A stretch of 57,874 bases of DNA, the filler included, from Jimgerdemannia flammicorona (Eukaryota): the NCBI GenBank assembly GCA_003990765.1. It is 2 parts of 2 records of this genome, joined end to end, with 100 filler letters (N's around TTAATTAATTAA, not from the genome) between each part and the next. Parts side by side here need not be neighbours in the genome. Positions count along the whole stretch, not along the records: positions 28,992 to 57,874 come from RBNJ01000537.1; 1 more part is not named here. One strand, written 5' to 3'. Shown here piece after piece: positions 1,931-57,874 of this stretch. The position numbers and the translations under genes are program-made. The first letter of the stretch is position 1. The number at the start of each line of letters is the position of its first letter. Under the pieces are notes generated by a model, which saw only the letters and a list, made by a program, of their open reading frames with translations, searched no databases and was not told the DNA's origin.

Positions 1931-1934
1931 TAAC

Positions 1935-8720: not shown

Positions 8721-8770
8721 GTTTTATGAGTCAGATTTCAGATTAATTGGGTCAGGTTTGTAGAGCACTA

Positions 8771-9350
8771 ACTATTGGTCAGAATATTTAATAGATGGAG
8801 GAGTATTGGAGTATGAGGAGTATTTTAACATTAGGTAGAAAAGTAAGATAATACAGACTCCTGAGTATTGATTAGGTGAGTGTGAGGTGATGGAAGACTT
8901 TTGGAGAGTAATTGAAAGTCTCTTGGAGGTTCATCCATTAGGACTTATAGTGAGAGAGAGGTAGAGTGATCTTCAGAAGAGACTAGTAGAAGGGGTGAGA
9001 GATAAGTAGTTAACTATTAGGTGAGTACTAGCTATTTAGGTTGAACTTATCAAATATTGACTATATATATTTGAAGATAAGTAGTAGTTAATACTTGGAT
9101 TATAGGTTACTAGATAGGAGTAGCTAATAATAGATCTTTTGAATAGCTAATAGAAGAGATAGAGATCTGAAGAGAGAACTTATAGAAGACTAGTGGAGAA
9201 AATTTATAGATAGAGTAGAGAGAGAATTAGAGTTACTAGGGAGATGATAATTTTCTAAAGAGATGAAAAAGAGAAAGAGGAGAAAGAGAGACCTCTCATA
9301 GAATTAGATAAGAAGTGGAGTTGTATTAGTATAATATAGATTAGATGATA
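8771..9350 (+). mobile_element. Decayed LINE ORF2 3' fragment
   Basis: TPE[H]xLGECEVMEDFW matches QMPEHWLGECEVLSDFW of the LINE at ~29100. Collinear with the reverse complement of 35700-36100. Confidence 0.75.
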
Positions 9351-28891: not shown

Positions 28892-28991
28892 NNNNNNNNN
28901 NNNNNNNNNNNNNNNNNNNNNNNNNNNNNNNNNNNTTAATTAATTAANNNNNNNNNNNNNNNNNNNNNNNNNNNNNNNNNNNNNNNNNNNN
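28892..28991. other. Artificial 100-nt contig linker (N44-TTAATTAATTAA-N44)
   Basis: Symmetric N runs around a six-frame stop palindrome, flanked by homopolymer contig ends. Confidence 0.95.
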
Positions 28992-34482: not shown

Positions 34483-35406
34483 GTATTGTCTTGATATATT
34501 ATAGGCTATGTAGAGAGTCACTGACCTTGGGTATCAAGTGCCTAGTATAGGATATCTGCAGGTCCTTAGTATCTATAATGGGGCTCTCTAACTTTGGCAA
34601 GCTTCTTAGTGAGCATGATTCTAGTATAGGTAACTGTTTTTTGGGGTATTATTGGGATAGGAGGGGAGATAGTTGTTATAGATAGGAGGAAGAGTGATAA
34701 TAGTAAATCAGTAGAGTGTCAGGCTGGGGGCAGTTATTGGGGCTGGGGTAGGTACTGCTTCAGTGGGGTCTTTTGATTAGTATAGAGTAGTTAAGTAGTA
34801 GGTATCACTCATGACTTCTTTTGGCAATATGTGGGGTTAGGCCCCAGTTGTTAGAGAGAGTTAGGAAGCCTGAGGCTACCTATTTCAGGCATCTTGACTG
34901 CACTCAACTAGAATCAGAAGCTGATATAACAATGTGATTGAGGCCTATAGGCTTGAGTAGTAGGATATTGGGGGTCTTTTTCTACCTTATGTACAAGTCC
35001 TTTACTTATCTCATCTGAGAGAATTAGGTCCTATCTATTATAATATACTTTGATGAGAGTTTTATCTTTATCTGTCATTCTCCTTAGAGTAGCAGGAGCT
35101 ATTCTATTTAGCTCAAGTATGGTCTTATACATATATTGGAGCTTTGGGTATATGCTTTTAGTCATGGTATATAGTTGAGATCTCCCTGATGGTAGAGAGA
35201 GTATGGTATATAGAATGAGGTATGAATCACTATAGGCTCTACTGTACCTAGTATAGTCAAGTTGCTAAATAATAGCTAGCTTATATTAATGAGAGAGCAG
35301 TGCTTGATGGGTAGTAGGGGAGGGTTTTGGCCTATATAGTCTAGATTCCCTTTTAATAAAAATCCACAGAACTCTGAGTCTATAAAAAAAAAAAAAAAAA
35401 AAAAAA
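34483..35406 (+). mobile_element. Poly(A)-tailed non-LTR retroposon copy 3 (5'-truncated)
   Basis: Collinear with ~6513-7437. AATAAA followed by poly-A at 35384-35406. Confidence 0.88.
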
Positions 35407-35447
35407 TATACTTTTCATCCAATTCCATAAAAAATCTTCTCTCTCAC

Positions 35448-35701
35448 ATATACTTTTAGTTATTAGTATATGGCTGATTTCTCCCTAGTGGTAGGAAGAG
35501 TATGGTATATAGAATGAGGTATAGGCCACTATAGGCTCTGCTGTATCTGGTATAGTTAAGCTACTGAACAATAGCTAGTCTAGGTTTAATGAGGGAGTAG
35601 TGCTCAATGGGTAGTAGGGGAGGGTTTTGGTCTATATAGTCGAGGTTCCCTTCCAATAAAAATCTACAGGACTCTGAGTCCATAAAACAAAAAAAAAAAA
35701 A
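35448..35701 (+). mobile_element. Poly(A)-tailed non-LTR retroposon copy 4 (3' ~250 bp)
   Basis: Repeats 35149-35406 and ends in AATAAA...poly-A. Confidence 0.85.
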
Positions 35702-38700
35702 CCTCCTTCCCCCCCTCTCTCCTCTTTTCTCACCTCTCTAGAGGGTCATTAATCCCCCAGTGACTCCAACCCTCCTTCTACTCTTCCTGCAAATATACTC
35801 TATAAGTCTCCTATAGAGTCTCCCTTCAGGTCCCCACCCCTATTACTAAATATTCAGAATATCTAGTAATAATTATAACTTATGCCCCAAGTATCAAATG
35901 CTGACCATTCTCAAACATATAAAGCCAATGTCCAACAAGTCTAATAGTCAATCACTCATCTCCCACCCCTTCTATCAGCCTCCTCTAGAGATCACCCCAT
36001 CTCCTGCCCTCCATTTCTCCAAAAGGTTGTACCTCTAGCTAATCCTCTATTGCCCTCCAAAAGTCTCTCATAACTTTGTACTCCCCCAGCCAATGCTCAG
36101 AGATCTGTACTACTCTACTCTCTTGCCTAACATTAAAGCACACCTCATACTCCAAGACACCCCCTTCTATCAAATATCCTGACCTATAATTCAGTATCAT
36201 ATTACACTGCAAGAGCCTCTACCATACTACTCAAAATTTAAAAAGAAGCTATCTCACCACTTGCTTACTCCAAGACCAAATACTATTATAGTTTCACTTC
36301 TTGCTAATTCCTATCCTCTGCCAGATCTCAGACCACAAATCTCTTCAATACTTCTACAGATATTCTAAGCCATCCTTTAAATAAAAATCATTTACTGGTA
36401 TACCCCCTAATAGAAGATAATCCCACCTTTACATCTGGGGCCCCCAGACTTCTTCCTTCTTATCACTCTACTATCTGAGTCCAATTTAATGAGCATCATT
36501 AACCACTCTCCACCAGAATCTCCTATAGTATATCTTTCAGCTCCCCTCCAGTACCATCAGAGAGAGCAAGTTACCAGTCATACTCTGGGGAGAGAAACAA
36601 ATCTCCTATACCCTCTGCATAAGAGGTACTCACTCTCAACCTCTCAACTCACTAGCTCACCTCAGCCACTATATTCTCAAGTATGCAGGTACTTGGTAAA
36701 GTCTACCAGATCTAGCCCTTCTCTGTCTACCAGCAATGTCAACATCTCTCAGTCAATCTAACTTCACTATCCTGCTCATATTCATGATCTGGCCATCTTC
36801 AATAGTCTCCTAACCACCCATACTGAGAAGTCTAAGAAATACCCCAGATACCATAACTTAGATAGCTAATATATATTCAACAACATCATCCTTTCTATTA
36901 GAGAGACATATCAACTATCTCATCTTGAGAGCATCTCTTTACTCAATCAGTTGCTGCTTCTACTATCTCTGAGATAACAGAGAACTATATACTGAGAAGT
37001 CAATCTCTATGTATCTAACTACTTTCTCTGCCAGAACAACTGTTTTAATTATATCCTCTCCTACTATTTCTTTACCTAAAACCAGAGTCTCATATGTACT
37101 TGTACTAGTTGAGCTTAGGGTCTGAGTACCCCTCATACTATTCCACTACACTCTTCAGTGCTGCCACATCCTCCTCAGAGCTCAGTCTGACCACTATATC
37201 ATTAGCAAAGGCCCCCATCTTCTAGTTTACTCCCAGAATATTCAACTCCCCCACTCTGTGCCATATTCTGTCTAACAATGGCTCCAGAGAGAGGGTATAT
37301 AGAATTAATGACAGTGGGTCTCCCTGTGGCACTCCTTCACTCAGAGGAAATGACTCTCTCTTATATCTATTTACTATAATAGCTACCAGACTCCCCTCTA
37401 ATAGACTGATCAATGATCTCCTAAACTCTGGGTAGACCCTTATTTGCTTCAACACCCCCTCTAGCTATATATACTAGACTCTGTTATAAGCCTTCTCTTA
37501 GTCTAGAAATACTAGTTGATCATTAACCCCAGCAGTATGAGCTTCTTCAATAATACTATGGATCTATGCTGTCCTATCTCTTATCAAATGAACTCTGACA
37601 AAGCCCCTTTGCTCTGTCTCTAATACCTGCTGAGCTACTCCTTATAACCTAGTTACTAAAATCTTTATCACCAATTTGCAATCTATATTCAGAAGCATGA
37701 TCAATCTTTAGTTCTTCCAATTCTCCCTCCTCTCTTTATTCTTATATAGCAGAGCTATAAGCCCAAGTACTGCCCCCCAATTCAGGTCCCTGAGTTAATA
37801 ACTTCATCATACATCTATGTCATCTTCTTTAGTACCACCTTTACACTGGCCATTTATTTTCAAAAATTCCAAGACAGTTCATCCTCTTCTGATACTATCT
37901 CCAGACTCATTAATGCTAAAACCCTACAGATCTCCTCTCTTTAGACAGAACCTCCAAGATTATCTAGACCCTCTGCTAAGTCTAAATATCAAGCCTCCAG
38001 ATGCCATTTAATATTTAGTACATCTTTACCACCTTCTTCTTCACTCTACAATCATCCCCAATAAGACCTCAGTTAGCCTAAGATCTCTGATATCTCAATC
38101 ACCATATTACCTGCCTCATCCAATACTCTTTTTTGCTGTACCTCATCCTTCTTACCTAAAGTAGCCTTGACAGAAACTTTGTAGGTCACTCCCCCTCCTC
38201 TAAGCTCTGCTACCACAAATAGGCTACTATTCTCTTTATCTGCAATTCCTCCTCCTGCCTAAGCAGTCTCTGCAATTCTTCCATCTCTTACTGGATCTAT
38301 TGAGCCCTTCAATCTCCTTTCTCACTACTATCTAAGAATCCTGCCCACCTCTCCAAAAGTCTCTCCAACCTCTGTAAGGCCCACTTTATACAACTCCTCC
38401 TCTGAGCCCCCCTCTCTCTCTCAGTCTTGCCTCATAACTACTAAGCATCAGATTTCAAATACTGCTAATAATCCTCAATCTCCAGCTCCTGTATCCTTCA
38501 GCTAATAATTCTAGTACTAATATCTACTACCTACTCATTCTATAAGATGTATTCTCTCAGAAATGAAGTATTCAAACACTAATATCTAAATCCCTTCTCA
38601 CTTTTCCAAATCTCCCACAGCCCAACAAATCCCAGTAGTCAGACTAAGAATACTAAACCATCTTAAGAGAACTTCAGACATCTACTCTCCAGTACTCAGC

Positions 38701-41320
38701 AGTTAATATCCAGTCAATTCTCAATCCCAGCCCTGCTATCCAGTGAGTATAGACCCTATAGTCTCTCTATTCAAGATGTCCTACATCTACTAGTGAGCTC
38801 AATCTCTCAATCTCCTCTCAGTCTACTATCTTCCTACTCCTATCTGTCATCCCCCTCTCTCTATCAGTTCTGTCCAGCAGTCTATCACATATTATGTTAA
38901 AGTTACCCCCAGATAGTCAATCCTCTCTACTACTATAATATCAATATCTCATAGTTCTCTTATCTACTCTATATATTTCCTCCTTTCCACTGAGTAATAA
39001 CATAACTCAACAGTCAAGGGGCTTCACCCTGACCTCCTCTACACTCTCCACACTACTCTGCTCTCTCAATGTCCAATGTCCCCAATGTTCCTCTTACCCT
39101 TTCTAATCAGAATTCTTACCCAACTCTGCCATATAGCTATATCTCTCCATTCTCTTGTCTAATTCTATATGTCTAAGCCAGCATTATAGCCTATATCCTA
39201 CAACAAGAACAGATCTACATCCAGTCCCTTCAACTAGCTAAAAATATTCTAATATCTCATTATACCCCTCAAACTATTGATATTCAAAGAGAAGATTCTA
39301 GTTGTACTGTTTATATTAGATGATGTTTAGAGAGTAAGCCCTTATCCTATAATTCTATACTTACTATATTACTAGCAATATCCAGATTCTGCTCTGTCTC
39401 AAGTTCATCTGCCTCTCTCTGCTAAGCATTCAGTACTTCTAAGATCTCCTGATAATCCTCACTATTCACTACCTTCATATTAGACCAGTAGTCCTTGTAT
39501 ACTACCTGTCACTTCTTTAACATCTTTCTAAATTCCCATAGATATACTGCATACTCATTTACAATAGTTAGAAGTACTATCTCTCTGGCATAATCTATCT
39601 CATATTTCTCTATCTTCAATAAGCCTACTAATAGTTTATTTCAAAGCTTCTATACCACCTTCTCTCCTTATAGAATCTTACTTCAATATCTCTCACTAAT
39701 CATCTTAAAATCTACTTTACCCAACTCATCTACTATAATATTCATCAATACTTTCCACAGTTACCTCTTCTCCCCTATAGTCTCATTGATACCTAGGACC
39801 ACCTCCTGCCCCCCAGCCCCCAGACCCCCCTCAGCATTCATCTTCACTATCTCATCTCAGTCCTCCTCCAGTATGTCCTATAGCTTATCAGTCCCCCTCT
39901 CTCTTGTGGACACCCCATACTATACTTGGGCCTCCTCAGCTATCATCATAGCCTCAGCCACTATACTCTACTTGGTACTTCCCCCCTCCTTCAGAGTCAC
40001 TATGATAGCCTCTTTCTTTTCCTCTACCCAAGTACTTGCTTGTAATCCACTACTAATAGCAATAGCCTCACCCTCTGTCCTCTCTCCCAGCTTTACCAAT
40101 AGATCTTTCTGATGTTATCTCTCTTATATCCTCTTTCAGACAGTCTTATCTAGTTAAACTCTCCTACCATTCATAATCTCAACTACCATCCTAGCCTCAA
40201 ACTCTCTCTAGACCAATCACCTCTTCTTCACTACTCTGGCCAGATTCTTCAATATCTCTAGCAAGTTCTTCTTATCTTCTGGTATCCTCTTTACCCTCAA
40301 GACCTTATATGGTTTCCACTTCAGTACTACTAGTAAATCTCATTCTTTTCCAGTATTCTCTTTGCTCATTAGTCTAATCCAGACATCTGTATCTCTAGTC
40401 CTAAACTCAGTTCCTTCTCAGACCCAGAAGTCAACATTCACTATATTACTCCTTGATGATGTCCACAATCAGTCCTCTGGCCACCTCCTTCTTCACTGTA
40501 GATATATTTATCACTACCAGTTACACCACTCTGGGGTTCTAGCATAGACACTGAGCTATAGGAATTATCACTAATCCTACTACTACTTTTTTCTTCAATG
40601 CTCTCAACATTAACTCCTCCTTCTTGAAGCCTATCTCTACTCTCTCCAAACTCTTTAAGAACTTCACCAAGGCTACTCCTTTCACCTCCTGAGCCAGAAG
40701 ATCCAGAACTATTTTTGCTATGATTGCTAAGCCTCAGTAGTACAAAGTGATAGTGAATTTGAATACTAACTTCTTGAGTAATAGTGCTGCTACCAAATCT
40801 ATTATATCATCAGCCAGATCACTAGGTCTTATATCTCCCCCCAGTCTAGCCCCACTATCAGCTATTATATCTGGATTTTTTTTCTAATTAGTAGTCTCTT
40901 CTCTATCAGCAGTCTCACTCTCTTAAGTCTCTACTCCTCCAGCCCTACCACCACTATTACTATGGACCCCTTTGCCAGGCCTTGCAGCCCCTCCTTCTTC
41001 TTACTCTTCTGTAGTCAGCCCTCTAGTCTAGTTGCCAGATGTTCTGCTTTGATCTTATTAGTAAAACTCATCCTCTCAGACTCCTGCCTACTGGTCCTCC
41101 CTCATTTACTTCTTTGTCTATCAGCAAGAGTACTCAATAGACTCTCCCCCAATTCATGACTCCTCTTCACATACTGTCAGTCAAATACACTGGTACTGCC
41201 CTGCCCTGCAAGCTCCTCAGAATACTTATCAGTTACTATATTATTATTACCTTTTCTCCAAAAATGATATTAAAAGTATTGTTAGAAGTTTGTATAACTT
41301 AAATTATACTAGAGAAAGAT
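35702..41320 (-). mobile_element. Second L1/Tx1-type LINE, more decayed relative of the first
   Basis: EGVPQGDPLSLILYTLSLEPLLDRIW. The 5' region (41170-41320) and ORF1 region align with 34330-34480 and 33400-34070. ORF2 start at ~39315. Confidence 0.88.
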
Positions 41321-41730
41321 AATGTCTCTAAGTATATCTATATCAGTTACCTCATAGATCTCACTTAAAGAAATGCTATTATAGTATATAAACTCTATAC
41401 TATCTATAAGTAAAATATAGAAGTATTAATCCAGACCCAATTTTACCTTAGAAATATCTAAAAAAAAATAACCTCTGCTATCTATCTGAGTATTATTCAT
41501 TATATTGAAAAACTATTTTCCAAAGAAGAAGAGGAATTTTTAAAATAGAGTAGCTCTGAAATCAAAGAAGTTAATAAAACAGAAGCTGATATAGAAGATG
41601 CCTACTCATATTAGAATAATGACTAAAGAACTGATGTGATAAGCTAATAGAAAAATATACTAAGTTACTATCCAAATTAGTTACTATAATTTAACTATAT
41701 ACTATATCAAGTATACTAGACAATCAGGAC

Positions 41731-42030
41731 TAGTGCTCTCAATAAATTAAATTGAATCAAATTTGATCCAAATTTAATTTTGAGATTTAATTCAAACTCT
41801 ATTTTTTGAAATATAATAACTTGACAAAAACATATCCAAATTTAATAATCTTTAGCTTGTTAGATTCCTCTATAAGAGAAATCTAACAAGCAAAAGATTG
41901 TTAAATTTAAATATATTTCTATTAAGTTATTATATTTCAAAAAATAGAGTTTGAATTAGACCCTTAATTCAATTTAAATGACTCTCAATTTGATTCAATT
42001 CAAATTGATTTGATTTTTTTAGAAGTACTA
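41731..42030. mobile_element. hAT-type palindromic MITE
   Basis: TAGTGCTCTCAA...AGAAGTACTA termini and the same internal inverted repeat as 3350-3730. No clear TSD. Confidence 0.85.
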
Positions 42031-44049
42031 ATATAAGTATACAATCTCTAAGCTACTGAAATTGCATATCATTCTTAGAATAAATCTGGAAATTATATGT
42101 AGATTATAAAGCTGAGTTAAACCAAAGTCACAGATTACAAAGCTGAGTCAACTTAAAGTTATGAAATATAATATATAGAAATAGAACCTTATTAATCAAA
42201 ACTGAAAGTATATATACTGAACATATAGTATATTAAAATAAAGAACTATAATAAACTAAAACCAAAACCACAACTCTCAAACATATATCTAGTCATAACT
42301 ACTGAAGTCTACAACTATATCTATGCTGATATCTGGAATACTATTATTAACTAGGTTACAGTATCTCTATCTCTTATAAATATTCATAGTCTAGTACTCT
42401 TTTACTTCATGAAAACCTGATAGAATACTCTGAACATGCTTAGCAAGGCCCACTAAATTGGACAAATCTCAAGCTATTATTAAATTAGCTATCTTCTGGA
42501 AGATATGGTCCACTATTACTATGATATAGATATTACTGAAATGTCTCAATACTAGAAGCTCATTATATGTAAACACTGAGAACTCTTTTATAAGTATAGC
42601 ACCTTTATTCTCTATCTTAAGTTACTACTACTGAAATGATTAACACTCTGATCTATGACCAAATTGATGATATAGTGTAAAAAATCAACTATAAATATAT
42701 TAAGTACATCCAAACTACAGACAGACCTTTTCTATATTCAGATAACTATATTTTGTAAATGCTTTAAGTTGGATATATTATAAAGGATATCTATAATATA
42801 ATCTAGTTCAACAATGATAAAACAGAAGACAATGATCTCTCTAATACTGATATAACTTTTAGTCAAGAATCTCTACTAACTCTAATTATTCTGCTAATCT
42901 TATTAATGAATTTACAATAGTTTATAACTATCTATAAAATCTATTAGAATAATGACCACTGACATAAGTACTAACCTATATTTATATCTGACTATTTTAA
43001 CTATAATAAAGAAATAAGAGAATACAATTTGTATCTTCAGACAACTCTTAAGATAGAACCAAATAATCTCATCTCCTAAGTATAAGTAATATAAAGAACA
43101 ACTATCAGCTTACTATAACTCTATAATATATAGTACCATAATCTACTGAAGATATGCAGAGAGTAAATCTAATAAAAGTAAAGATTATATACTCCTTCTT
43201 TACCTACCAATACTATATCTAGTATACAAAATAGATAATATCATCCTATAGAATAATAACTTTGTTTCAATATACTACTATATAAATAAATAGAAAGATA
43301 TAATTCAAGAATCACTCTTTCTAGATAATTACTTTATCAGAGATGATATCATTGATAGTGACCTTATTAAGAAGTATCTAGATAGTATCTAAATTTATAA
43401 ATAACTTAATGGTCATTAGTATAGTTAGATTAGATAATTGTATTTTGACTTATCAGTAAGTTGATCTCTTGATATATCAGTTCATACTTATACTATATGA
43501 CTATATTCTGACTCATTAAGTACTAAAGTACTATATCTATATTTATCCTAGTCTAGATAGTCTTCTATTAATATAAATACCCCCTTTTCCAGATCTCAGA
43601 AACTCAGATATAAATAGATAGAAATCTAGATAAGAATTAGATAAATACTTTTCTATATAATTATCTCTTCACATATCTCCTATTATTAATTAATAATAAT
43701 ATTATAAATAGTAAATAACTCTATTTAATAACCCTCAATCTACTCTTAAGTAAACCTATACTATATTAGATCCTACTCCTAACTAGATTCAGAAATTCCT
43801 AATTGAGTATTATTTGAAGTAATATATCAATTCAACTAAGCTGGCCTTAGTTTCTTAAACTTTCTGAAATAAGAAAAATTCTGAATATTTAAAATAAGTT
43901 CAAGAAAGAACTTTGGTTAAAACATTAATCTAATCTTGAAATCAATAAGTATAGAGAATATACTTCATATAAAATTGATCTTAATCTTAAAAAAAAACAG
44001 TCTTTCAGAATATTCAAAACTTTTAAAAAACTCTTTTAGAACTATATAA

Positions 44050-44198
44050 TAGTGCTCTAGCAAGATACTCTTTTACAACTAACTAGAACTACTTTACTAT
44101 ATCAAATTGTATAAATAATCCAGATAGTATAATGTATTTTTAGCTGATATATTATATTAGAATTTGAGATTAGTATTCCTAGCTGATACATTATATAT
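44050..44198 (+). mobile_element. Possible left end of a hAT-family element into which the gypsy element inserted
   Basis: TAGTGCTCTA at 44050 is the reverse complement of the 8761-8770 terminus. TAGCTGATA motifs resemble 4185-4200. Confidence 0.35.
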
Positions 44199-44234
44199 TG
44201 TGGCATTGGTTATGTATAATGAACTTCGACTGCA

Positions 44235-44620
44235 GGAGGGATAGGGAAGGAATGGCTCACTTTAGGTTGGGCTTTGGCTATTTGGGTGGGGTTGGCCAGT
44301 CATTGGCTATTTGTCTTTGAGGATGGGAGGAGGCAGAGCTTGGGAGACCAGCTGCTGTGATGGCATAGGCTTATGGAAGATATCTTAACAGGCTGGTGGC
44401 TGGGTTGGGGGATGTGGGGTGGTTGGAGGCACCGCTTGGTGGAGAAAATCTGTAGACAAAGTGGGGGGAGAGTGGGGGTCATTGGTGAAAGGGTGATTTT
44501 CATTTATGAGGAAGTAGGGAGGGGCCCCCTGGTGGGGATTGGATAGTGGGTCGGAATGATGTATAATTATTCATAGACTGGTAATAAAGGCGGAGTCTAA
44601 GTGACTATAAAAAAAAAAAA
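44235..44620 (+). mobile_element. Poly(A)-tailed retroposon fragment inserted in the 3' LTR
   Basis: Absent from the other LTR. AATAAA then poly-A. 17-bp TSD AATGAACTTCGACTGCA (44218-44234) / AATGAACTTCAACTGCA (44621-44637). Confidence 0.9.
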
Positions 44621-45719
44621 AATGAACTTCAACTGCACAGCTCAATGTGTGCCACTGGTGAAGCACGTGATGGATAACTGAATGCGTTGGTGATATTCGC
44701 AGGTTGTTGATCATGTGATTGGCTTATTCGATTCATGTGGTAATTGATAATTAGCGAGAGATTGTTCGTTGGCTCAGGATGTCGATGGTGGCTCAATATT
44801 CAGTGGAAAAAGGTGTTGTTGCTAATAGAGGGTGGTTACTTGGGTGTGCCAGCAGTGATAAACTTTAGCAGAATATGCGGTCAATTTGAAGCAGGCAACA
44901 GTCTTGACTTTAAGCAGTTCGTGGCACAGTAGGTCGGGAAAATGGAGGTTGATGGCTCGCTCATCTGTTTTGGTTAATCTTGAAAGGTTCCTGGTGGTCA
45001 TTCGGGTCTTTGGCAGCGGGTTGGTCTTTGGTGGTCTAGTATCCTTTGGCTGGGTATCCTTGGGTTTCTGGGTCTTGAATCCCAAATGGCAGTCAAATAG
45101 TGGTCTGAATGTGCAGCGGTCATAGTCTTGAATCCTTGGCTGGGTCTCGGGTCTCGAATGGCAGCAGTCGGGTAACATTTTCTTTCCATGGCAAGAGAAA
45201 ATTCTTTAACTCAAACTTCCGAGCAATCTGTTGCTCTAGGTTGTTATCTTGTTCTCAGAATTTATCCAGTCTCTTGGAGGCAGTGGTTTTTTTGTAATCC
45301 TTTTTACTTTTAAACACAAGCTGACTGAGGTTTATTCACTCTAAGAATATGGGTTATTTATACAAGTTTGCTAGCTATGGGTACAGCTAAGATATACTAT
45401 ATTGTGGCAAACATTTGCTATGCTATTGGCTTGCACAATGCGAGGTGCAGGCTATTGTTTACTATGGATTAGGTTATAGGGGATAGCAATGCTAGATTCG
45501 GATGAGCTGATAAAATGCTGAAAACGGTGGTACTGGGTAGCAACGCTGGATTCGGATGAGCTGACATGATACAATGATTGTTGCCAGAAGTGGTTGTGGA
45601 GGGTGGCAATACTGGATTTGGACCTGCTGACAAAATGCTGAAAACGGTGGTACTGGGTAGCAATGCTGGAAATGGACTTACTGACAAAAGCTGGGTTCTT
45701 ACAGCTGATGGGCAGTACT

Positions 45720-46705
45720 CTAGAGGAAATAGTACCCTTCATCCATGGCAGGCAAATCTTGCTAGGTTGTGATTTCTTCTTCATCATATCTCTCCTCAAA
45801 GGGGAGAAGCGCCGGCCAAGAGGTGGGGGGGTAGAAAAGTGGCCAGTCATCTTCAACAACATTCTCCAACCCTTGAACAGCTTGAATGTGGACAAAGGAC
45901 TGGTAGACTCTCTGTTGCTCCTCTTCTTCTTCTGAAGGCTTGTCAGTTTCAGTATCAGAGGGGGTTTCTTCAGGAGCAGGGTCTTGGAGTTCTTGGGCCT
46001 CCTCTTCAAAGACAGGAACTTCTTGGGCTTCTTCTTGATTTAGTTCCCAAATGATGAGGTGTGAATTGTGGCTGACAGGGTGGTGGGTGGTTGGGGTAGC
46101 TCCAACGGGTGCCTCTATAGTGATGGGCGGTCCTTCAAATATCTCCATAAGACTCATTAGGTGACCTTAATAGTTGTCTCGGAGTGGGGTGGTGTGGAAA
46201 CCTGGCTGAGTAGGTTCAGTTTGTTGGCTTCCTATGGTGATGCAGTTGCTGCCAATAGCATTGGCTACTTCAGATTCTATCCAGTCAGCATCTTCAGTTG
46301 AAAGGCGGGAGAGGCTGCCAGCTGTTACTCCTTGCAAGTGTGCTATAGCCCAGGGAATATGGCAGAAGATTTGATGGACACGGAGAGCTCTCTTGATTAG
46401 CCAGCTGGTGGTTAATATTTCAGCAATGAGGCTTCCTGGTCGCCTTCTTGAGTCTCATTGTGAAGGCGGTGTCCGATTTCATAGTCATGCCAGAGGATCA
46501 TTCATTCGGTAGTATCTTTGAGCTGTTGGGTCATTATATACCAGTAGTTGATGAAGTGTCCAAGGTCCTCAGTATAGAAGTTCAAGTGTTCAGAAGTATC
46601 TGGGCGCCAGATGGCCTTCTTGATAGCTTCAAAGATCAGGGTCTTTGGGCCAGACAAAGGGGTAGAGTGGCAGGAGATCTGGTTGGTTCAGCGAATAGGA
46701 GGCAT
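45720..46705 (-). pseudogene. LTR-internal ORF of unknown function, 3' LTR copy
   Basis: 986 nt. Has a 1-nt deletion near 46431 and C>T stops, at positions that are open in the other LTR. Confidence 0.75.
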
Positions 46706-46912
46706 TGTGTGGTGAGTACTTGGTCCTTTGGTGCCGATCCCTGAGGCGGAGTATGGTTCCTTAAATAACGTGGTCTTCATTTTGGCTCGGGTCATCTTGT
46801 CTTCTTTTGGGATGATCACCTAATGGGTCAGGCTGTCTATTTGATTGTCACGCCATTATGTCGTCTGATCTTAGCAGTCACCGGTACTCCATTGTCAATT
46901 GTGTACATCACA

Positions 46913-46924
46913 TCTGCCCCTTGC
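46913..46924 (-). other. Polypurine tract candidate
   Basis: Minus strand GCAAGGGGCAGA directly before the TG of the 3' LTR. Confidence 0.7.
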
Positions 46925-47237
46925 AAAATTAGAGCTGTCCTCGGTGGTGAGGGTTATACAGAGTTGGGTGGTCTTAACTCCAGGGATGAGCAGAATGCTG
47001 GTGCATTTGTGAGGACTGGCCATCCTTGTCTAGGGCGAGGGCTCCCATAGTCACAGCTGGGGGTTCGAACCCATTGGAAATAGTATTACTTGTAATCTGA
47101 GGCAATTTCTTAGTAACAATGTCTGTCATATGGATGGGCTTGAGTCTGGTTCCAACGTTGTTGGCTTTCTTGAGTTCCGAGTAAAACATCTGTCATATCT
47201 CTAGCAGAGACGACACAGACAGAGTGAACAGGATTGT

Positions 47238-49900
47238 TCAAATGCATTTTGCTTCTCTTGAGTAGTAGAGTCTTATGCGGTTGCAGTATATCTTGGTCTT
47301 GAGGATAACTCCATCCAAGGTCTTGAGTTGATAAGTGTGGTTCGAGAATACTTGGTGTATGAGATAGGGGCCTTCCCATTTTGGTTCAAGCTTGGCACTC
47401 CAATTTCTTTCTATGATGGTATGGTACACCAGAACCTTTTGTCCAATGAGCAGGGGTTTGAGGTCAGCTTTGTGGTCGTAGTACCTCTTTTGTCATTCTT
47501 GTGCCTTGGCGATAAATCCTCATGCTTGCTGGTGTATGTCGTATAACCGGGTGATCTCTTCTGTGACTTGTTTTGATAGATCTAGCTGGACTGGTTCAGT
47601 AGGATCTTGTGCTTCTCAGCCATACACCAAATAGAAGGGGGTCTGTTGGATAGCAGTTGCCTTAGAGGTACAGATGCTGAACAGAATTGCTGGTAGATAG
47701 ATATCCCAGTTTAGTTGATCTCCGGTTCTACTGAGACCTCGCTTGATGGTCTGGTTCATTCGTTCAGTAAGTCCATTTGCTTGTGGGTGGTAGGCTGTTG
47801 TTGGTTGTAGCTTGATCTTGAAGTTGCTTGCAAAGGTCTTCATGGCTTGGTTGATGAATTCTTGGCCTTAGTCTGTAATGATTTCCTTGGGCACACCATG
47901 GCAGCTGAAAATTTCATCATACAGGATCCCAATAATTGTCTGGGCATCGGCAGTCTCAATGGCAAAGACTTCGGGCCATTTTGTCAGGTGGTCTTCGATA
48001 GTGAGGATGTAGTGTCTTTCTCGGCTGATTACTGGTAAAGGTTCAATAATGTCTATTCCTAGTCTTTGAAAGGCTCCAGCTAGTACTGCGATCAGTATTA
48101 ATAGTGCTCTATCGGTAGGCTTTTGTCAGTATCTTTGGCAGGTATCACATTGTTGAATGTGCATTGAAATTTGTTTTCTCATCTTGGGCCACCAGTACCA
48201 CTTCTTGATTCTTGCAATTGTAGCACCAATTCCTCGGTGTACATTTTGGTCATGATTTGTTGTCAGGATCTTCAATATTTCTTCTTCTCTTGGAACTTGG
48301 GTGTACTGCTCTCCTTCTACTCTCTAAAGTTCGCTATCGCCTTCTTGGAATTTCTTGAAATTCCTTTGGATAAACAACTTGTGGGCTGGTTGGATTCCTT
48401 TCTTGAAGCTTCTATGGTGCAGACTCCAGGTGAGGGCGAGGCACAATTCTTGGTTCATTTGGGTGAGTGGGAAGTAGCCTTCTCTTGTGGGGGCTCCTTC
48501 CCTTCTTGTTGGTTTCGCGGGATTCTTGATAGGGTATCGACATTGGAATTCTTAGCATCTTTCTTGTAGACAATAGTGAACTGATATTCTTGCAGAGATA
48601 TGATCCATCTAGCAAAGATTCCTGAGGGCTCTGGCTTGTTGAACAACCATTGTAGAGCTTGATGATCAGTGATAAGGGCGAATCTCTTTCCCAAGAGATA
48701 GTGTCGGAAGTGGTCCACAGCCCAAACTACTGCTAGGCATTCCAACTTAGTGGCTCCATAGTTCACTTGTGTTTCATTCATGGCCTTGCTAGCATATTCG
48801 ATAACATGCTCCCTCTTCTGGTCATCTTGCTGAGACAGAATTGATCCAAGTCCTAAGGCTGAGGCATCAGTTGCTAGGATGAATGGTTTGCCAAAGTCTG
48901 GTTGCACCAGAACAGGGGCTTTGGTAAGGGCCTTCTTGAGTAGGTCAAATGACTTTTGTTGTTCTTCTTTCCAGTAGAATGGTTGGTCCTTCTTGGAGAT
49001 ATCTCGGAGAGGTGCTGCCTTATCTGAAAACCTTGGGATGAATCGTTGATAGTAGGATGCCAGCATAAGGAAGGATAGGGTCTCCTTTGCTGAGGTCAGG
49101 GTTGGGTAGTTCTTGACTTTCTCTACCTTGTGGGGGTCGGCATGTGTTCCTTGAGCTGAGACAATATATCCCAGATATTTGACTTGATGTTTTCTGAAGA
49201 AGCACTTCTTGGCATTGAGTCTGAGTCCTGAATTTCGAATGGTATTGAATACTTCGTGGAGGTCTTGCAAATGCTGCTTGAATATCTCAGAGTAGATGAT
49301 TACATCATCTATGTACACTAGTACATTTCTTCCAATGAGGTTCTAGTAGATATAGTTCATCATTCATTGGAATGAGGCGGGTGCATTGCAGAGTCCAAAG
49401 GGCATTCATAGGTATTCATACTGTCCTCATCTGGTGATGAAGGCCATCTTGCAGATATCTTCTTTAGCAATGGGTATTACTTGGAATCCTTGGAACTGGT
49501 CGGTAGTGGTCATGTATTTGACTTTTCCAAGGGCATTGATGAGGTCATCAATTCTTGGCAGTGGGTAGGCATCTTCTGTGGTGACTTTGTTGAGTTTTCT
49601 GAAATCCACAACTAATCTCCATCCTCCTTTCTTTGGTACTATAATTGCTGGTGAAGCCCAGGGACTTGATGATGGTCTGATGACTCCATTTCGTAGCATT
49701 TCATCTATATATTGTTGTTTGAATTCAATCAGATGATGTGGTATTCGGTAGGGTCGTTGTCGGATTGGTCTTGCATCTCCTATATGTATAGGGTGTTCTC
49801 TGTATTGATATGGTGGGAAGTTATCATATGTGGTAGTAAATATATCTTTGTACTCCTCTATCAACTCCTGTATCTGTTGTTGCTGGTCCTTGGTTAGAGT
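47238..49900 (-). pseudogene. pol: reverse transcriptase, RNase H and integrase
   Basis: PSSSPWASP, RLVVDFRKLN, YPLPRIDD, YIDDVIIYS, FILATDAS, LECLAVVWAV, H...YWWPKM...CDTCQ, AYHPQANGLTERMN, KLEPKWEGPY. Confidence 0.95.
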
Positions 49901-50358
49901 TGTCTTGATGTCGATGGCTTTGATTACTGAATTTGCTGAGTCTTCCTCCCTGGTACCGTCAGTCTCACCAGAGAGGGCTTGCTATTTCCCAAGAATTTGA
50001 AGACTTCTTCCTCATAGGTGTCTATCAGTGGTTCGAAATATCCCAGTGTTGTTCCCTTGGGGATAGTTATCACTTCAAAGCCTGAGTTTCTAATAGGGAT
50101 GTGGATTAGTGACATCTGGTCATGAATTCGTTCTTCAGCCAGGAGGATGTGGTATTCCTTTTGAAGCTCCAGTGATGGTGCAAATATCAAGTTGTTTGCT
50201 TCTACTAGTAGGTGCACATCTAGGCCTTTTTGCTGGTAGGGCTGCAGGAGGATGTCTTCTCTTGCTCGGATTGGGCAGCAGATATGGGGTCTCATTTGTC
50301 AGAATTGAGCAACTGTTGCCAAATGAACCTTGATAGGTAGTGTCCGTAGATTTCTATT

Positions 50359-50766
50359 GGTGCTTCCAAAGCCTCCTTGTCCTCTGTTGGTATCTTCTAG
50401 TTGATCTACCTCTTGGATGGTTGGCTGTGATGTTTTGATAAACAGGATTTGGCAGATGGCTTCTATAGGACTGAAGAATCAGCTGGTTCTACTAGAATTG
50501 CGGATAATGACCTTCAAGGGACCCCGGTAGTCCTGATCAATGACTCCTCCTTCTACTGTAACTCCTTTGGTTGCCAATGAGGATCTTGAGGCCAATTGTC
50601 CATAATGCCCAGGTGGTATAGCAAGTGCAATCTGTAGGTCAAAAGTCCTGGTACTTCTGGGTCAGATTCTTACTTGGTAGGGGAGGCAGAGGTCATAACC
50701 AACTGATCCTTCTGTTTGTGCAAGAGGTGGCTGTGCCCAGGGGGAAAGCAGCTAGACCTGGATAAT
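50359..50766 (-). pseudogene. dUTPase domain within gag-pol
   Basis: All five trimeric dUTPase motifs: GSVGYDL, GQLASRSSLA, GGVIDQDYRG, AICQI, RGQGGFGST. The three in-frame stops are all explicable as C>T. Confidence 0.93.
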
Positions 50767-51849
50767 TGGTTGAGCTTTGAGAAATGGCACTTCAGCTGTT
50801 GCCATTGTAGGTGAGAAGTCTATGTGTTCTGGTTTGAAGAAAGGCCAGTGAGCTCCCATCTTTGAGTTTCTTGTGTAATTGAATCCAGTCTTTCCTAGAG
50901 GGTCTAGAGCTTCCATAAGGATGAAGGCAAGGTTGACACCTTCTTTTCCTTGATGAGGGCGACAGTACCAGTGAATGATAGCAAGAACTTCCAATGGTAG
51001 GTCCCAGATAGAGGTCTTGCTCTTGAACTTGCAGTCTCCTTTATGGTTGATTTCTTTGCACTTCTGACAGGCCCAGTGAATTCGAGGTTCTTGCAGGGTG
51101 GGATCCTTTCTCTTGACTCAGCTCTTATAGACATCTTTGCTGAGGTGAACATCTCAATGTTCACACCAGTGGCAGATAAAGATTTTTCCACAATCATAAT
51201 GTCCCTTCTTGACAAAATCTTCATTTCGCTGTTTGACCTCCCTACTGGTAGGGAATCTCTTCCAATACTTGTCATAGGTGGGCTGTGTAATCTGGAGGGC
51301 CTGGGTGATAGTGTAAGAGCTATTGCTTTCTCCTTCGATGGTAAGGGACTCGAATGTTTGGCGGGCAAGGATCTTCTGTCCTTCCTTATAGGTCTTCTTG
51401 AAGGTCTTCGGGATTGGAGGTTGTATTCGGTGGTGGGATGGTGCTTGCTTCAATTTATCCTTGTCATCAATTTCTGGTATTGGAATCTTCTTGAGATCCA
51501 GGATTTGGCAATTGCTGCAATCATCTCTTAGTGAGTGGAAGCTGATGAAGTGTTCACATATGCCTCGATGAAAGGCTCACATGATCCAATTTTCTACCAG
51601 TGGTAGTGGTGGTTGAGCAGAAGGTCCTGCAAACTCAAGTGCTGCCCTTGCATTAATGGCTCTATCAATGCTTTCTTCCAGACCTTCAACATCGATAACT
51701 CCAATAAAAGAGTCTTCTTGTTCACTTTCTTGGTCCCTTGGGGCATCGAAATCACTTCCTAGTTCTTGTAGGAAATTGGCCTCGCTTTCATCCTCAATAG
51801 TAGTAGGGGTGTCGCCATGTCCTTGCCATTCTGTTTCTGAGGCTTGATT

Positions 51850-52230
51850 TGTCCTTTTAGATGATCCTTTTGAGTCAATGGGCACCTTGTACTTCTGTCC
51901 ATAAATGGAGAAGACCAGGAGTTGTTTCTTGATATCTATGTTGGCTCCAACTCGGCTTAACCAGTCAGTTCCCAGGATCAGGTCATAGGAGGTTGCAGGG
52001 GTCACGACGGCTTTGGGTACATTGAGGCGGGCCTTTCCAACTTGAATGGGGATGTCTCTGACAAGTCCAAGGGGTGTGGAAGCTGATCCATCGGCCATGA
52101 TAACTCTTGCTTTGATTCCTTCATCTATTCCCCATCCAATTTGCTCCAACATTCTTTGGGTGATAATGCATACTGCTGCTCCAGTATCGATGAGAATTCT
52201 GGCATTTTCACCATACACTTTTCCATTGGC
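51850..52230 (-). pseudogene. Retropepsin aspartic protease domain
   Basis: ARILIDTGAAVCII ... YDLILGTDWL. Confidence 0.93.
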
Positions 52231-52899
52231 AAGTCTTGTAGATTGATGTTCATGTCGCTGGCTCTTATGGACTGTGTGGATAGTACTAGGTTCTTGAGTG
52301 TGTGGTCCTTGGACTGGAAGTCTCTTGGTATCTTCCTTGGCTTCTTTCAGGAATTTTCGCCTGACCTCTGGTGCATTCTTGAGGACTTGCTCAACTGTAA
52401 GACCAGCATTCTGTAGGCGGATATGTTCCCAAAGTGAGGCTACTGCATGGGGCTTGCTGCTTCTTCAGTGTCTTGGTCCCTTGGGGTGTAGTCTCTCATT
52501 CCTGATGGGCATTTCGTCAGCTGAAGATTCTATGCTCATATGCTCATCTTCTTCAAGGTCTGGCAGGGTAGAGCTGGGGGTTGTCCTAGATGGTCCGGCT
52601 TCTGATTCAGGAGTATCTCTTCTAACTCGCTTCTCCTGTTCTTGTGGAGTGTCTGAAGAAGAATGGCCATGTCGCGGATGCTTGCCTGTGGATATAGTTA
52701 CTGGCAGTTGAGGTGGGGGGTTCCTTTGTGGTCTTCCTCGCCCTCTGGTCTCTGCGGGGGCAGCTTCCCATGTCACCTTGGATGGAAAGGCCTCGAAGTA
52801 TGGGTAGATGTCATCTTCTTGACCATGGAGCCAGGCTGCTTCTTCTTCCATCTCCTGAGTCTCTTTGTCTACCTGAAAGAGGTTGACATTTCTGTCATT

Positions 52900-54720
52900 G
52901 GACTGGGTGGATTGGTTCCTTGGACAATTCCTCTGGATGTGGCCTTGATTTCCACAGCTAAAGCAGGTGGAACCATAGGAACCAGTCGCTGATGAGGCTG
53001 TAGTTGCAGCTGGTTATGCGGGGGCAGGACCTCTGTTGTCTTGTTGCCGGTAGTCTGGTCTGTTATCACGATGGTAGTCTTGTTGTCTTCTACCTTGGTT
53101 GTTCAGCTGGGCAACTGCGATGGCCAGGTCCTTCATTTGCTTGGTGAGCATTGTCATAGGGTCTTCTTGAACTCTTGATGGTGGCTGCTGCTGTGGTTGC
53201 CTGAATGGAGTCGGATTTGTGGGTGCTGGTCTGTTCTCATAGTTGGCTATCTGGGCTCTGAGGAAGGCATTCTCTTGCTCCATAGTTGTTCCTCAGGTCC
53301 TTGGGGTTTCGGCTCAGATTGGCTCAGGATAGCCTTGTACTTGTTGTACTGGTCTATAATCTGCTTCCCAACATCCTTGTGCTCCAGCAACTTGCTGTTC
53401 AATGTTTCGATATCCCATCCTGATAACTTGCCTTCAGAGTTCTGGGTATAAGCCATTGAGGAAGGTAGTTGAGGCTAGGGCCAGTTGGACTGCTGGTTGA
53501 AGGTTCGCCTTGATCATTTGAGCTTGAATCCGATGGTAGAAACTCTTGGGAGTTTCATTGGCAGCTTGGCTCATATAGGTCAAAGCCTCCTGTGCTTCTT
53601 GTTGGCGCTCGAATCCATTGAACTGGGCATGGAGCCAGGCTTTGTGAATCATGTACCTTGCTATATAGTTCCTATCAGGTTGAAGGCCATCATTCAGTTC
53701 CTCTGTATGAATTCCTCCTCTGGCTTGCTTGGCTTGATTATACCTCTGTAGGGCCGGTCCTCTCAGGAGTAACTCCACGATTCTGAGTTTTCTTGCAGCA
53801 TCCCATTGTTTGGTGGCTGCTTGGACTTCAATTTCTCCAAAGAATTCCTCGATATCTTCATTGTCTGCACCATGGAACTTCTGAAGATAGCTTATGTCTG
53901 GCTCATCTTCACTATCTGAGTATTGTTCAGGGGTAGGGGATCTGGCAGATTCTCGGGGTAATGGGAAAGGTGGTGGTGCTAGTGCTTGATGAACTAGTGG
54001 TGCTGGCAGAGGGTGGTGTCTTGGTGAGGGTGAGAGTAATCTGGCTCTTCTAATTAATGCTGGGGTTGAAGTCCTGGGTAGTGGTGGAGATCTTCTGATA
54101 GACTGGTGATAGTGGCGAGGTGTGAGTGACCAGGGTACCGAAGTTCGAGCAACTGATGGTGGGAGTGGACTGATATAACTGATAGTGAGTTTGTCTGCCC
54201 CTTGCTGTTGTGAAGTAGTGAGGTCTTGTTTGCCTTGTTGTGGGTCAGTGTCACTGTCGGGATAATAGTATAGATTGAATTCGTCCCTTTGATGGTCTGA
54301 TCTCCAATCGTTGTCTTGTTCTGGTTGATATAGATGATAGTCCTCTTCTCCTTCTGATGTTTCAAAGTATACCCGGTCTAGTGGAGTAACTCAAGTGACA
54401 ACAGTAGTTATGTAGTCGCTTCTGTCTGAGTTCTTCCTATGGATAAGGGTCTGATACTCCTCAGGGATATCCTCTTCTTCTTCTTGGCCTAAGTCTTGGA
54501 TCTGAAGGGGCAGTTCTGGTTGTCCTCTGAGTCATCTCCTTTCTCTTGAAGTCAAACTGTAATCTGGGTCACTTCTTTCTTCTGATTTGGTTTTCTGGCT
54601 ACTAGTGTTGAATAGGGTCCTGGCTACTGTTCTGACAACAGTGTGGGCTTTCTTTTCTGCTGAGGAGGGCTGTTGCTGCCCCTGGTTTGGTTGCTGACTT
54701 GGTCCTGCTAAGTTCTCCAC
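52900..54720 (-). pseudogene. gag: long low-complexity N-terminus, capsid-like region and CCHC knuckle
   Basis: KFHGADNEDIEEFF, QAANETPKSFYHRI, FLNGLYPEL, CFSCGNQGHIQRNCP. Same frame as the protease and dUTPase. Confidence 0.85.
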
Positions 54721-54771
54721 TGTAGATAGCTGGGTTCTTGAGCCAAATGGTCAAGTCTTTTGAAAACTTTT

Positions 54772-54789
54772 CCAGTTAAGCCTCCAAAA
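54772..54789 (-). other. Primer-binding site candidate
   Basis: Minus strand TTT-TGGAGGCTTAAC immediately after the 5' LTR. TGG is complementary to tRNA CCA; the tRNA is not identified. Confidence 0.55.
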
Positions 54790-55326
54790 TATGGCGTCGC
54801 TTATGTATAATGAACTTCGACTGCATGGCTCAATGTGTGCCACTTGGTGAAGCACGCAATGTATAACTGAAGGCATTGGTGACGTTCGCGGGTCGATGGT
54901 CACGTGATAGGTCATTTGAAACGTGCAATAATAGCAGGAGATCGTTTGTCAATGGCTCAATTGTTTAGTGGATAAGGGCGGCGATTATGCTGGCTAAGTT
55001 TCCTGGCAGCGATTAACTTGGCAGCAAACTCGGATTTATGCGGTGATGACGGGCTTGCTCTTTATGTGATCAATTAAAGCAGTCCGTGGCACAGTAGGTC
55101 AGGAAAATGGTCGACAGCTTGCTCGTCCATCTTGTTTAGCTTGAGAGGGCAGGATAACTTGGGTCTTTAGCAGTCATTCGAGTATCTTGGTGGGTCTTAG
55201 GCTGTGGTCTTGTTTGGCTGGGTATCCTTGGGTTCCTTGGCTTTCCAGGTCTTGAATCTCGAATGGCAGTCAAATGCGCGGTCCGAATGGCAGTTCGAAT
55301 AGGCGGTCTGAATGCGCGGCAGTCAT

Positions 55327-55425
55327 GGTCTTGAATCCTTGGCTGGGTCTCCTTGGGTTTCTGGGTCTTGAATCCTTGGCTGGGTCTTCTTGGGTTTCTG
55401 GGTCTTGAATCCTTGGCTGGGTCTC
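55327..55425. repeat. 37-bp tandem repeat in the 5' LTR
   Basis: GGTCTTGAATCCTTGGCTGGGTCT(C/T)CTTGGGTTTCTG, about 2.7 copies. The 3' LTR has only one partial copy. Confidence 0.8.
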
Positions 55426-56012
55426 GAGTCTCGAATGGTGGTCAAATGGTGGCGGTTGGGTAACGTTTTCTTTCCATGGCAAGAGAAAATTCTTTAACTC
55501 AAACTTCCGAGTGATCCATTGCTCTAGGTTGTTATCTTGTTCTCAGAATTTATCCAGTCTCTTGGAGGCAGTGTGTTTTCTCTGTAAAACTGTCTGACTG
55601 AGGTTTATTTACTCTAAGAATATGGGTTATTTATACAAGTTTGCTAGCTATGGGGGAGGGGGGGTGCGACTAAGGCTAAGGTATACTATATTGTAGTGAA
55701 CTTATGCTATTGGTTTGCATGATGCAAGGTGCAGGCTATTGTTTACTACGGGTTGGGTTATAGAGGATAGCAACGCTGGATTCGGATGAGCAGGCAGGAG
55801 TGCTGATTGTTGCCAGAAATGGTTGTGGAGGGTGGCAATGCTGAAAATGGGTGTTGCTGACTTGCTGACAAGAATGCTGAAAATGGTTGTACTGGATAGC
55901 AATGCTGGATTTGGACTTGCTGACAAAACACTGAAAACGGTTGTACTGGGTAGCAATGCTGGAAACGGACTTGCTGACAAAAGCTGAGTTCTCACGGCTG
56001 ATGGGCAGTACT

Positions 56013-56997
56013 CTAGAGGAAATAGTACCCTTCGTCCATGGTGGGCAAATCTTGCTGGGTTGTGATTTCTTCTTCATCATATCTATCCTCAAAGGGGGGA
56101 AGTACCAGCCAAGAGGTGAGGGGGTAGAAAAGTGGCCAGTCATCTTCAACAACATTCTCCAACCCTTGAACAGCTTGAATGTGGACAGAGGACTGGTAGA
56201 CTCTCTGTTGCTCCTCTTCTTCTTCTGAAGGCTCATCGGTTTCAGTGTCAGAGGGGGTTTCTTCAGAGGCAGGGTCTTGGAGTTCTTGGGCCTCCTCTTC
56301 AAAGACAGGAACTTCTTGGGCTTCTTCTTGATTCAGTTCCCAAATGATGAGGTGTGAATTGTGGCTGACAGGGTGGTGGGTGGTTGGGGTAGCTCCAACG
56401 GGTGCCTCTATAGTGATGGGTGGTCCTTCAAATATCTCCATAAGACTTATTAGGTGACCTTGATGGTTGTCTCAGAGTGGGGTAGTGTGGAAACCTGGCT
56501 GAGTAGGTTCAGTTTGTTGGCTTCCTATGGCAATGTAGTTGCTGCCAATAGCATTGGCTACTTCAGATTCTATCCAGTCAGCATCTTCAGTTGAAAGGTA
56601 GGAGAGACTGCCAGCTGTTACTCCTTGCAAGTGTGCTATAGCCCAGGGAATATGGCGGAAGATTTGATGGACACAGAGGGCTCTCTTGATTAGCCGGCTG
56701 GTGGTTAACATTTCAGCAATGAGGTCTTCCTGGTCACCTTCTTGAGTCTCATTGCGAAGGCAGTGTCCGATTTCATAGTTATGCCAGAGGGTCATTTGTT
56801 CGGTAGTGTCTTTGAGGTGTTGGGTCATTATATACTGGTAGTTGATGAAGTGTCCAAGGTCCTCAGTGTAGATTCAAGTGTTCAGAAGTATCTGGGTGCC
56901 AAATGGCCTTCTTGATAGCTTCAAAGATCAGGGTCTTTGGGCCAGGCAAAGGGGTAGAGCGGCAGGAGGTCTGGTTGGTTCGGCGAATGGGAGGCAT
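56013..56997 (-). pseudogene. LTR-internal ORF of unknown function, 5' LTR copy
   Basis: 985 nt. The 2-nt deletion near 56870 and the CGA>TGA at ~56472 are both intact in the other LTR. Confidence 0.75.
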
Positions 56998-57526
56998 TGT
57001 GTGGTGGGTACTTGGTTCTTTGGTGCCAATTCTTGAGGCGGAGTATGGTTCCTTAAATAACATGGTCTTCATTTTGGCTCAGATCATCTTGTCTTCTTTT
57101 GGGATGATCACCTAATGGGTCAGGCTGTCTATTTGATTGTCACGCCATTATGTCTTCTGATCTTAGCAGTCACTGGTACTCCATTGTCAATTGTGTACAT
57201 CACAATATATTATTATCATTAACTATATTAGTATATATTTTACTTATATTGTTATTTTTTACTAACTCAAAAATATATAGCTTAGACATAAATGTAGATA
57301 TTCTCTGTAGATACTTAGTATAAATTACTTATATATAGAATATGTCTCTATCTTAGTTATTGTCAGTTTTAGTAGTATTTATATTATATTACTCTTTACT
57401 AGCATTTTTTTTTCTGCTGCTCACACATTGTCAATACTGGCTTTTATACTTATTTTTATCATTCTTCTTATCCTTATAATAATAGTCATTCTATATATAT
57501 CTATACTTATAATAGTATGTAATAAT

Positions 57527-57866
57527 TAGTACTTCCAAATAAATCAAATCAATTTGAATTGAATTATATTGAAGGTTATTCAAATCAAATCAAATTCAAA
57601 TTAAATTGAGAGTATAATTTAAACTCTATTTTTCAAAATATAATAACTCAACAAAGATATGTCCAAATTTAATGATCTTTAGTTTATTTAATTCCTCTTA
57701 TATAAAGGAATCTAATAAGCTAAAGATCATTAAATTTGAATATAGTTTCATCAAGTTATTACATTTTAAAAATAGAGTTCAAATTAAATCAAATTGAACC
57801 TTTGATTCAATTGAATCAAATCAAATTTGAGTTAAATTCAATTCAATTCAATTCATTGAGAGTACT
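57527..57866. mobile_element. hAT-type palindromic MITE
   Basis: TAGTACTTCCAAAT...TTGAGAGTACT termini; collinear with 3350-3730. Confidence 0.88.
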
Positions 57867-57874
57867 TTTTTTTT

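Follow-up and report, generated by a model that had tools for sequence, protein, structure and literature searches.

The window analyzed, the whole stretch of 57,874 nucleotides from Jimgerdemannia flammicorona, carries on its minus strand a decayed, fungal-type Ty3/gypsy element of 12.6 kb (57204-44621). All parts of the element described below lie on this strand. LTR-LTR alignment defined a 5' LTR at 54809-57204 (2396 nt, beginning TGTGATG, with an end good to ~2 nt) and a 3' LTR at 44621-46912 (2292 nt), which agrees with the size of ~2.4 kb given in the original prediction. A purine-rich tract at 46913-46924 directly abuts the 3' LTR on its upstream side and, from the alignment, is a candidate polypurine tract. 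The 7.9-kb internal region (46913-54808) contains many stops and was assigned by Pfam to gag (zf-CCHC), aspartyl protease, dUTPase, reverse transcriptase (RT), RNase H and integrase. The order of the domains, gag(CCHC)-PR-dUTPase-RT-RNase H-IN, is that of the Ty3/gypsy (Metaviridae) elements, and two long direct repeats flank the coding interior, as is characteristic of this group. No clear tRNA-type PBS or target-site duplication was readable in the decayed flanks of the element. The dUTPase domain maps to 50482-50661 (Pfam E 1.2e-13), between protease and RT, and the segment upstream of it (51576-50755) holds ~260 codons with Cys/His-rich stretches and has no Pfam match.

The two LTRs are 87.7% identical over 1922 columns (57204-55326 versus 46912-45032), and similarity extends to 54809 and 44621 at 65% over 514 columns with tandem-repeat indels throughout. 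Tandem repeats of 54 nt occupy 55817-55982, directly 3' of the LTR reading frame described below, and repeats of 25 and 37 nt occupy 55260-55425 in the distal LTR, where large indels separate the two LTRs. The differences between the LTRs are mostly transitions, with CpA as the top context (32 C/T, 20 G/A) followed by CpG (20, 14), a pattern that suggests repeat-directed C-to-T mutation. Soil-metagenome runs contain relatives of the element, and their contigs were aligned to the window. Compared with the window, the contigs of run X1 show 175 A>G and 121 T>C differences, the reverse changes being rarer (C>T 80, G>A 77). The presence of A/T in the window where the run contigs have G/C fits C-to-T decay of the window copy. 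Depth in run X1 was ~170-240 over the LTR and 25-100 over the interior, depth not being equal to copy number. Contigs of runs X1, X2 and X5 break at both edges of a ~180-nt segment just upstream of the 3' LTR (46999-47177); its depth matches LTR-level depth, and the segment may be common to other element families.

The remainder of the window is heterogeneous in composition. AT-rich blocks (25-38% GC) at 1-9000, 41000-44600 and 57205-57874 adjoin gene-bearing blocks of 50-62% GC, in which the genes are compact and GC-rich. These genes, the type of the element and its relatives in soil metagenomes point to a fungal host. Two ORFs are of host type: one of the ribosomal protein L4 family at 10117-11003 (plus strand, E 1.6e-30), spread over two frames, which suggests a short intron, and an ElonginA-binding-protein-1-like ORF at 15410-16180 (minus strand, E 3e-7). 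A 354-codon ORF ends just before the 44-N runs at 28892-28935 and 28948-28991, which are filler between the joined parts. A second reverse transcriptase fragment (RVT_1, E 4.4e-13) at 29989-30384 (minus strand) lies within a region of strong negative GC skew (29000-41000) and likely belongs to a different decayed retroelement.

Each LTR wholly encloses one sense-strand reading frame of ~328 codons, on the same strand as gag-pol. The copy in the 5' LTR (56013-56997) reads MPPIRR from 56997 and EGYYFL to 56016, followed by the TAG at 56015-56013. Its only lesions ahead of the TAG are a 2-nt gap at 56873/56872 and a single TGA in frame, at residue 134 of the truncated window fragment P0001. The copy in the 3' LTR (45720-46705) has a 1-nt gap near 46431, opposite 56725, and the stops TGA, TGA, TAA and TAG. 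The positions and the lengths of 985 and 986 nt in the original prediction were reproduced, as were its two gaps. It had also listed three stops open in the other copy; the stops are indeed private to one copy, and they total five. There are no lesions common to both ORF copies. The earlier view of an ancestral ORF that was intact is supported. At 56872, the run contigs carry 2 extra nt at depths of 76/76 in X1 (2 contigs), 6.96/11.1 in X2 (2 contigs) and 0/4.73 in X5, which indicates that the 2-nt frameshift is private to the 5' copy in the window. Among the 12 run-contig indels listed of 41, 11 fall at 55242-55800 outside the ORF and one, at 56872, falls inside. The differences between the ORF copies are distributed over codon positions 1/2/3 as 18/14/22. 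This spread points to neutral decay after insertion, as expected of the LTRs of one element. Both copies in the window are probably defunct remnants of an insertion that took place long ago and has since undergone neutral decay.

The coding potential of the frame was compared with that of shuffled LTRs, which had a mean open frame of ~120 codons and a maximum of 268. A 285-codon window with at most one stop occurred in 3 of 2000 dinucleotide shuffles, and 285 fully open codons occurred in none of the 2000. Both LTRs also hold a second open frame, of 198 codons at 55736-56332 and 195 codons at 45452-46039 (minus strand), which covers the acidic region of the LTR ORF in a different frame and extends beyond its stop. 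This second frame was rejected as a gene: Pfam gave no match for it, and it probably results from the GAA/AAG-rich, stop-poor sequence. In an LTR so poor in stops, an open frame is by itself weak evidence of a gene, and the decisive support is homology rather than the frame itself. The long shuffled frames and the open overlapping frame are what would be expected if the LTR frame were a chance opening in stop-poor, non-coding DNA. This explanation is extremely improbable given the result for 285 open codons and the relatives described next, which at ~30% identity keep both the motifs and intact frames. Comparison with one of them, L001, shows conservation at the first two codon positions and a nearly random third.

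A direct protein search of 5.8 billion proteins returned 351 candidates, of which three passed the cut-off of E <= 0.01. The best match is a protein of 325 aa with 76% identity over 93% of the query (E 1.9e-133). Its 90% cluster has six members; among them are proteins of 324 and 331 aa that are intact and have the same MPP start. Some shorter members of the cluster begin or end at codons where the window copies have stops; their frames may be broken at those codons, and a contig end is an equally possible cause. A profile search of 1.84 billion representatives (cut-off E <= 0.001) gave eight matches, four of them distant proteins of 342, 214, 247 and 149 aa with ~30% identity (E 3e-22 to 4e-7). 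The eight reach 342 aa at most, and these representatives thus include no fused form. The distant proteins matched both LTR ORFs in the window by tblastn (E 1e-8 to 1e-22). With six family proteins as queries, tblastn of the window at E <= 0.01 found nothing beyond the two LTR ORFs, which argues that the gene was not copied from gag or pol.

DNA encoding a relative of the LTR ORF was obtained as a 1535-nt metagenome contig, L001, with an intact ORF of 291 aa. Its open frame of 308 codons was equaled in 0 of 2000 shuffles. The 5' copy of the window and L001 were compared over 144 aligned codons, with stop codon and gap columns left out. Identity at codon positions 1/2/3 was 0.53/0.61/0.34, and pN and pS were 0.452 and 0.696. 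Saturation of dS makes the resulting dN/dS of ~0.35 indicative only, an upper-bound impression. The flanks of the two ORFs are unalignable, with local scores of 17-23 against a shuffle maximum of 29. Conserved first and second positions, a near-random third position and unalignable flanks point to a protein under purifying selection. The LTR ORF is thus very probably a real, selected gene that forms part of the LTR, a setting seen in the window lineage. Searches for close-relative DNA with query P0003 gave 586 pattern matches in metagenome_contigs and 119 in viral_contigs, with 0 confirmed in either set, and query A3 gave 73 pattern matches in viral_contigs, again with 0 confirmed. A contig retrieved with A3 from genome_contigs (L002, an archaeal MAG contig of 29% GC) was rejected as spurious, the match being a single stretch of 52 residues around the search pattern (E 1e-4).

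The start codon was assigned from the relatives. The in-frame ATG originally noted 25 codons upstream is present at 57072. All full-length relatives begin at MPP, however, and in L001 an in-frame stop precedes the start with no ATG between, which identifies the ATG of MPP as the start that is conserved. The upstream in-frame ATGs of the window sit at or before its first TATA-like box and are missing from the relatives.

The origin of the ORF was considered in the light of the same searches. No LTR or gag-pol features are recognizable across the 1535 nt of L001, and LTR retrotransposons are documented to have acquired additional ORFs by capture (PMC5408684, PMC7264820). Both observations are compatible with an ORF that the LTR of this lineage happened to take up from its host or a different mobile element, with no role in the retrotransposon and with distant relatives that are free-standing or in other elements. 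The protein searches found neither a cellular homolog nor an NCBI or UniRef record, the sources listed being JGI or ENA only; the eight profile matches are all short and have no Pfam domain; and the intact frames in the close, 76% identical family speak for continued selection within the lineage. Capture without a role is therefore considered quite improbable. A 33-nt direct repeat (170-202 and 1481-1513, 82% identity, 1311 nt apart) brackets the ORF of L001; it may represent a regulatory motif present twice or mark the border of a unit that is itself repeated.

The family protein is ~325 aa long and starts with a conserved N-terminal peptide, MPP.R.N..QT...S.PLP. This is followed by a predicted helical domain of ~130 residues in which the motifs YEI, H..P..I and FEGPPI are nearly invariant. 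The final 80-150 residues form a strongly acidic tail, predicted to be disordered and studded with bulky hydrophobics. A motif that is first acidic and then hydrophobic recurs in the tail as DDWPLFYPL in one lineage and as DDEAPLILNF or TPWVLNF in others. The N-terminal peptide, the YEI, H..P..I and FEGPPI motifs and the acidic tail are also found in the distant relatives. The very acidic C-terminal half of the original prediction is confirmed, with a tail net charge of -16 to -32 and a D+E fraction of 0.19-0.28 in all six members examined. The N-terminal part is near neutral and not basic, with a pI of 5.7-6.6 in five full-length members and 4.9 in P0001.

An AlphaFold2 model of the 325-aa relative, based on an alignment of 13 sequences, is weak overall (mean pLDDT 53.2). 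It has helices over residues 20-151, where pLDDT in 10-residue blocks is 55-84, and a small beta element after FEGPPI; the remainder is below 50. Pfam returned 0 families at E <= 1 for 13 of 13 members, and there were 0 matches to PDB sequences at E <= 10. With the weak model as query, Foldseek against the PDB had a best E of 0.49 and the BFVD fold search a best E of 0.11, neither yielding a match at E <= 0.001, and VIA-align of 48,161 chains gave a best Z of 3.4 with none at Z >= 5. P0003 had no usable match in the ESM Atlas, and residues 1-215 of P0011 matched unnamed bacterial or phage clusters only, at the noise level of 0.90-0.91. A model this weak means that the blanks in the fold searches show neither a novel fold nor a function. 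The structural check suggested at the outset (AlphaFold2 and Foldseek) thus delivered a modeled helical domain but no fold match. In Pfam, the protein matched none of the described gypsy protein domains.

Two TATA-like octamers are present in each LTR of the window. The first, TATTTAAG (57052-57059, with a 3' LTR counterpart at 46767), lies 62 nt upstream of the ORF ATG, and the ATG is 208 nt from the LTR start. The second, TATAAATA (55628-55635, with a counterpart at 45362), lies ~380 nt after the ORF stop. The sole AATAAA of each LTR (55604-55609 and 45336) follows 26 nt after the second box and ~400 nt after the stop. Within the 1535 nt of L001 there is one TATA-like octamer, and it precedes the ATG by 80 nt. 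The TATA-like box before the ATG in both the window and L001, with the single AATAAA, leads to the LTR ORF being read as its own transcription unit, and the position of the AATAAA suggests a separate mRNA of ~1.4 kb. The chance that the ORF has its own promoter and a short mRNA is judged to be slightly under even. One RNA run among 14 runs had three small contigs that aligned to the window (47003-47043, 55465-55606 and 56144-56334); DNA may be present in this RNA library, so these contigs are no demonstration of transcription.

The paired signals also bear on where the ORF sits within the LTR. It could be part of U3, with genomic RNA starting from the second box as in MMTV, or part of an R/U5 leader, with genomic RNA starting from the first. 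In the latter arrangement, the first TATA-like box would be the main promoter of the element, and the genomic RNA would have the ORF as its first cistron, within an R/U5 leader of great length. The short spacing between box and ATG in the window and L001 is in keeping with this layout, as is the closeness of the ATG to the LTR start. The implied R+U5 would be ~2.2 kb, which is unusually long among LTR elements, and the second TATA-like box with its AATAAA resembles an ordinary U3/R junction. The leader arrangement, in which a short ORF-only mRNA would arise through use of the 5' LTR poly(A) signal and the ORF would not be a U3 gene of the MMTV type, is considered unlikely.

The explanation that best accounts for the results as a whole, and that is held to be probable, is an LTR-borne gene with its own transcription unit and a trans-acting adaptor as its product. 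Each retrotransposition would copy the LTR gene to both ends of the element. Transcription of this self-contained unit would begin downstream of the first TATA-like box and end at the AATAAA, and any LTR, whether one of the pair or a solo LTR, could yield the mRNA. As an adaptor, the product would serve the element in trans: its helical domain would bind a partner from the host or the element, and its acidic tail would work in the manner of an activation domain. The tail has the trait of acidic activators, an acidic, hydrophobic-studded region predicted to be disordered (pLDDT <50). The pI of the N-terminal part and the best VIA Z give no clear sign of a promoter-targeting domain, and the protein may be a protein-protein adaptor. 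The N-terminal domain is not basic and has no DNA-binding or other fold match, so the case for an activator comes from the composition of the tail. An activator-like function is doubtful on this basis. The fuller proposal, a fungal Ty3/gypsy lineage that evolved an LTR-internal accessory gene with its own promoter whose helical, acidic-tailed product is a transcriptional activator or counter-silencing adaptor, is tentative.

Before gene calling, retrotransposon LTRs are masked as regulatory, non-coding DNA, so a conserved protein gene inside an LTR would be systematically missed. The family consists of a handful of unnamed proteins among billions, which fits an oversight related to masking. 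If the gene is expressed from each LTR, then solo LTRs would be coding genes and the protein dose would scale with LTR number. The protein family is new and can be probed for element activation or for countering fungal genome defense.

To our knowledge, a protein gene inside an LTR is otherwise known mainly from a few retroviruses. The sag ORF of MMTV, ~320 codons long, lies in the LTR, so that each end of the provirus has a copy. The window element shares this layout: an entire ORF on the sense strand within a long LTR, present at both ends. In contrast to MMTV, the element is fungal-type and has no env, and whereas Sag is a membrane glycoprotein, the LTR ORF protein looks soluble, with a predicted helical domain and an acidic tail. 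The absence of a Pfam match of any kind includes the MMTV superantigen family, and Pfam, PDB sequences and Foldseek searches of the PDB and BFVD revealed no relation to Sag, Nef or Tas in either sequence or fold. The likeness to foamy-virus tas/bel and HIV/SIV nef is looser, these being accessory genes at or within the LTR; for the LTR ORF, action in trans is a proposal. The activation region of Tas, itself an activator, is acidic. The tas/bel and nef genes overlap the U3 of the 3' LTR only partly and are expressed from spliced or internal-promoter RNAs, whereas the window ORF lies wholly inside the LTR and shows no sequence or fold similarity to them (BFVD, PDB). If the proposal is true, complex LTRs that bear accessory genes extend beyond the vertebrate retroviruses, with a parallel to MMTV sag or foamy-virus tas in an element without env. 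For MMTV, the term 'LTR open reading frame' is in use (PMC2119252, PMC2190914).

Other LTR retrotransposons, fungal gypsy elements among them, were also compared. The additional ORFs (aORFs) of plant and bdelloid LTR retrotransposons sit between the LTRs, and they have no sequence relation to the LTR ORF (Pfam). PMC7264820 (plants) and PMC5408684 (bdelloids) describe Ty3/gypsy aORFs beyond gag and pol with unknown function, extra genes of the same general kind as the LTR ORF. The phrases 'in the LTR', 'within the LTR' and 'inside the LTR' are all absent from the review PMC7264820. Fungal gypsy elements span ~4.4 kb to >13 kb, and PosPlaTy3-5 of the basidiomycete Postia placenta has the same internal order as the window element, with a dUTPase between protease and RT (PMC2864245). 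The full-text literature search returned no fungal LTR retrotransposon with a protein gene borne by its LTR; the legend to Figure 3 of PMC2864245 marks an 'add. ORF' of unknown function, for which the text gives no position and which may be relevant here. Retroelement accessory genes are already known, and what appears new here is an accessory gene wholly within a fungal-type gypsy LTR that encodes an undescribed protein family.
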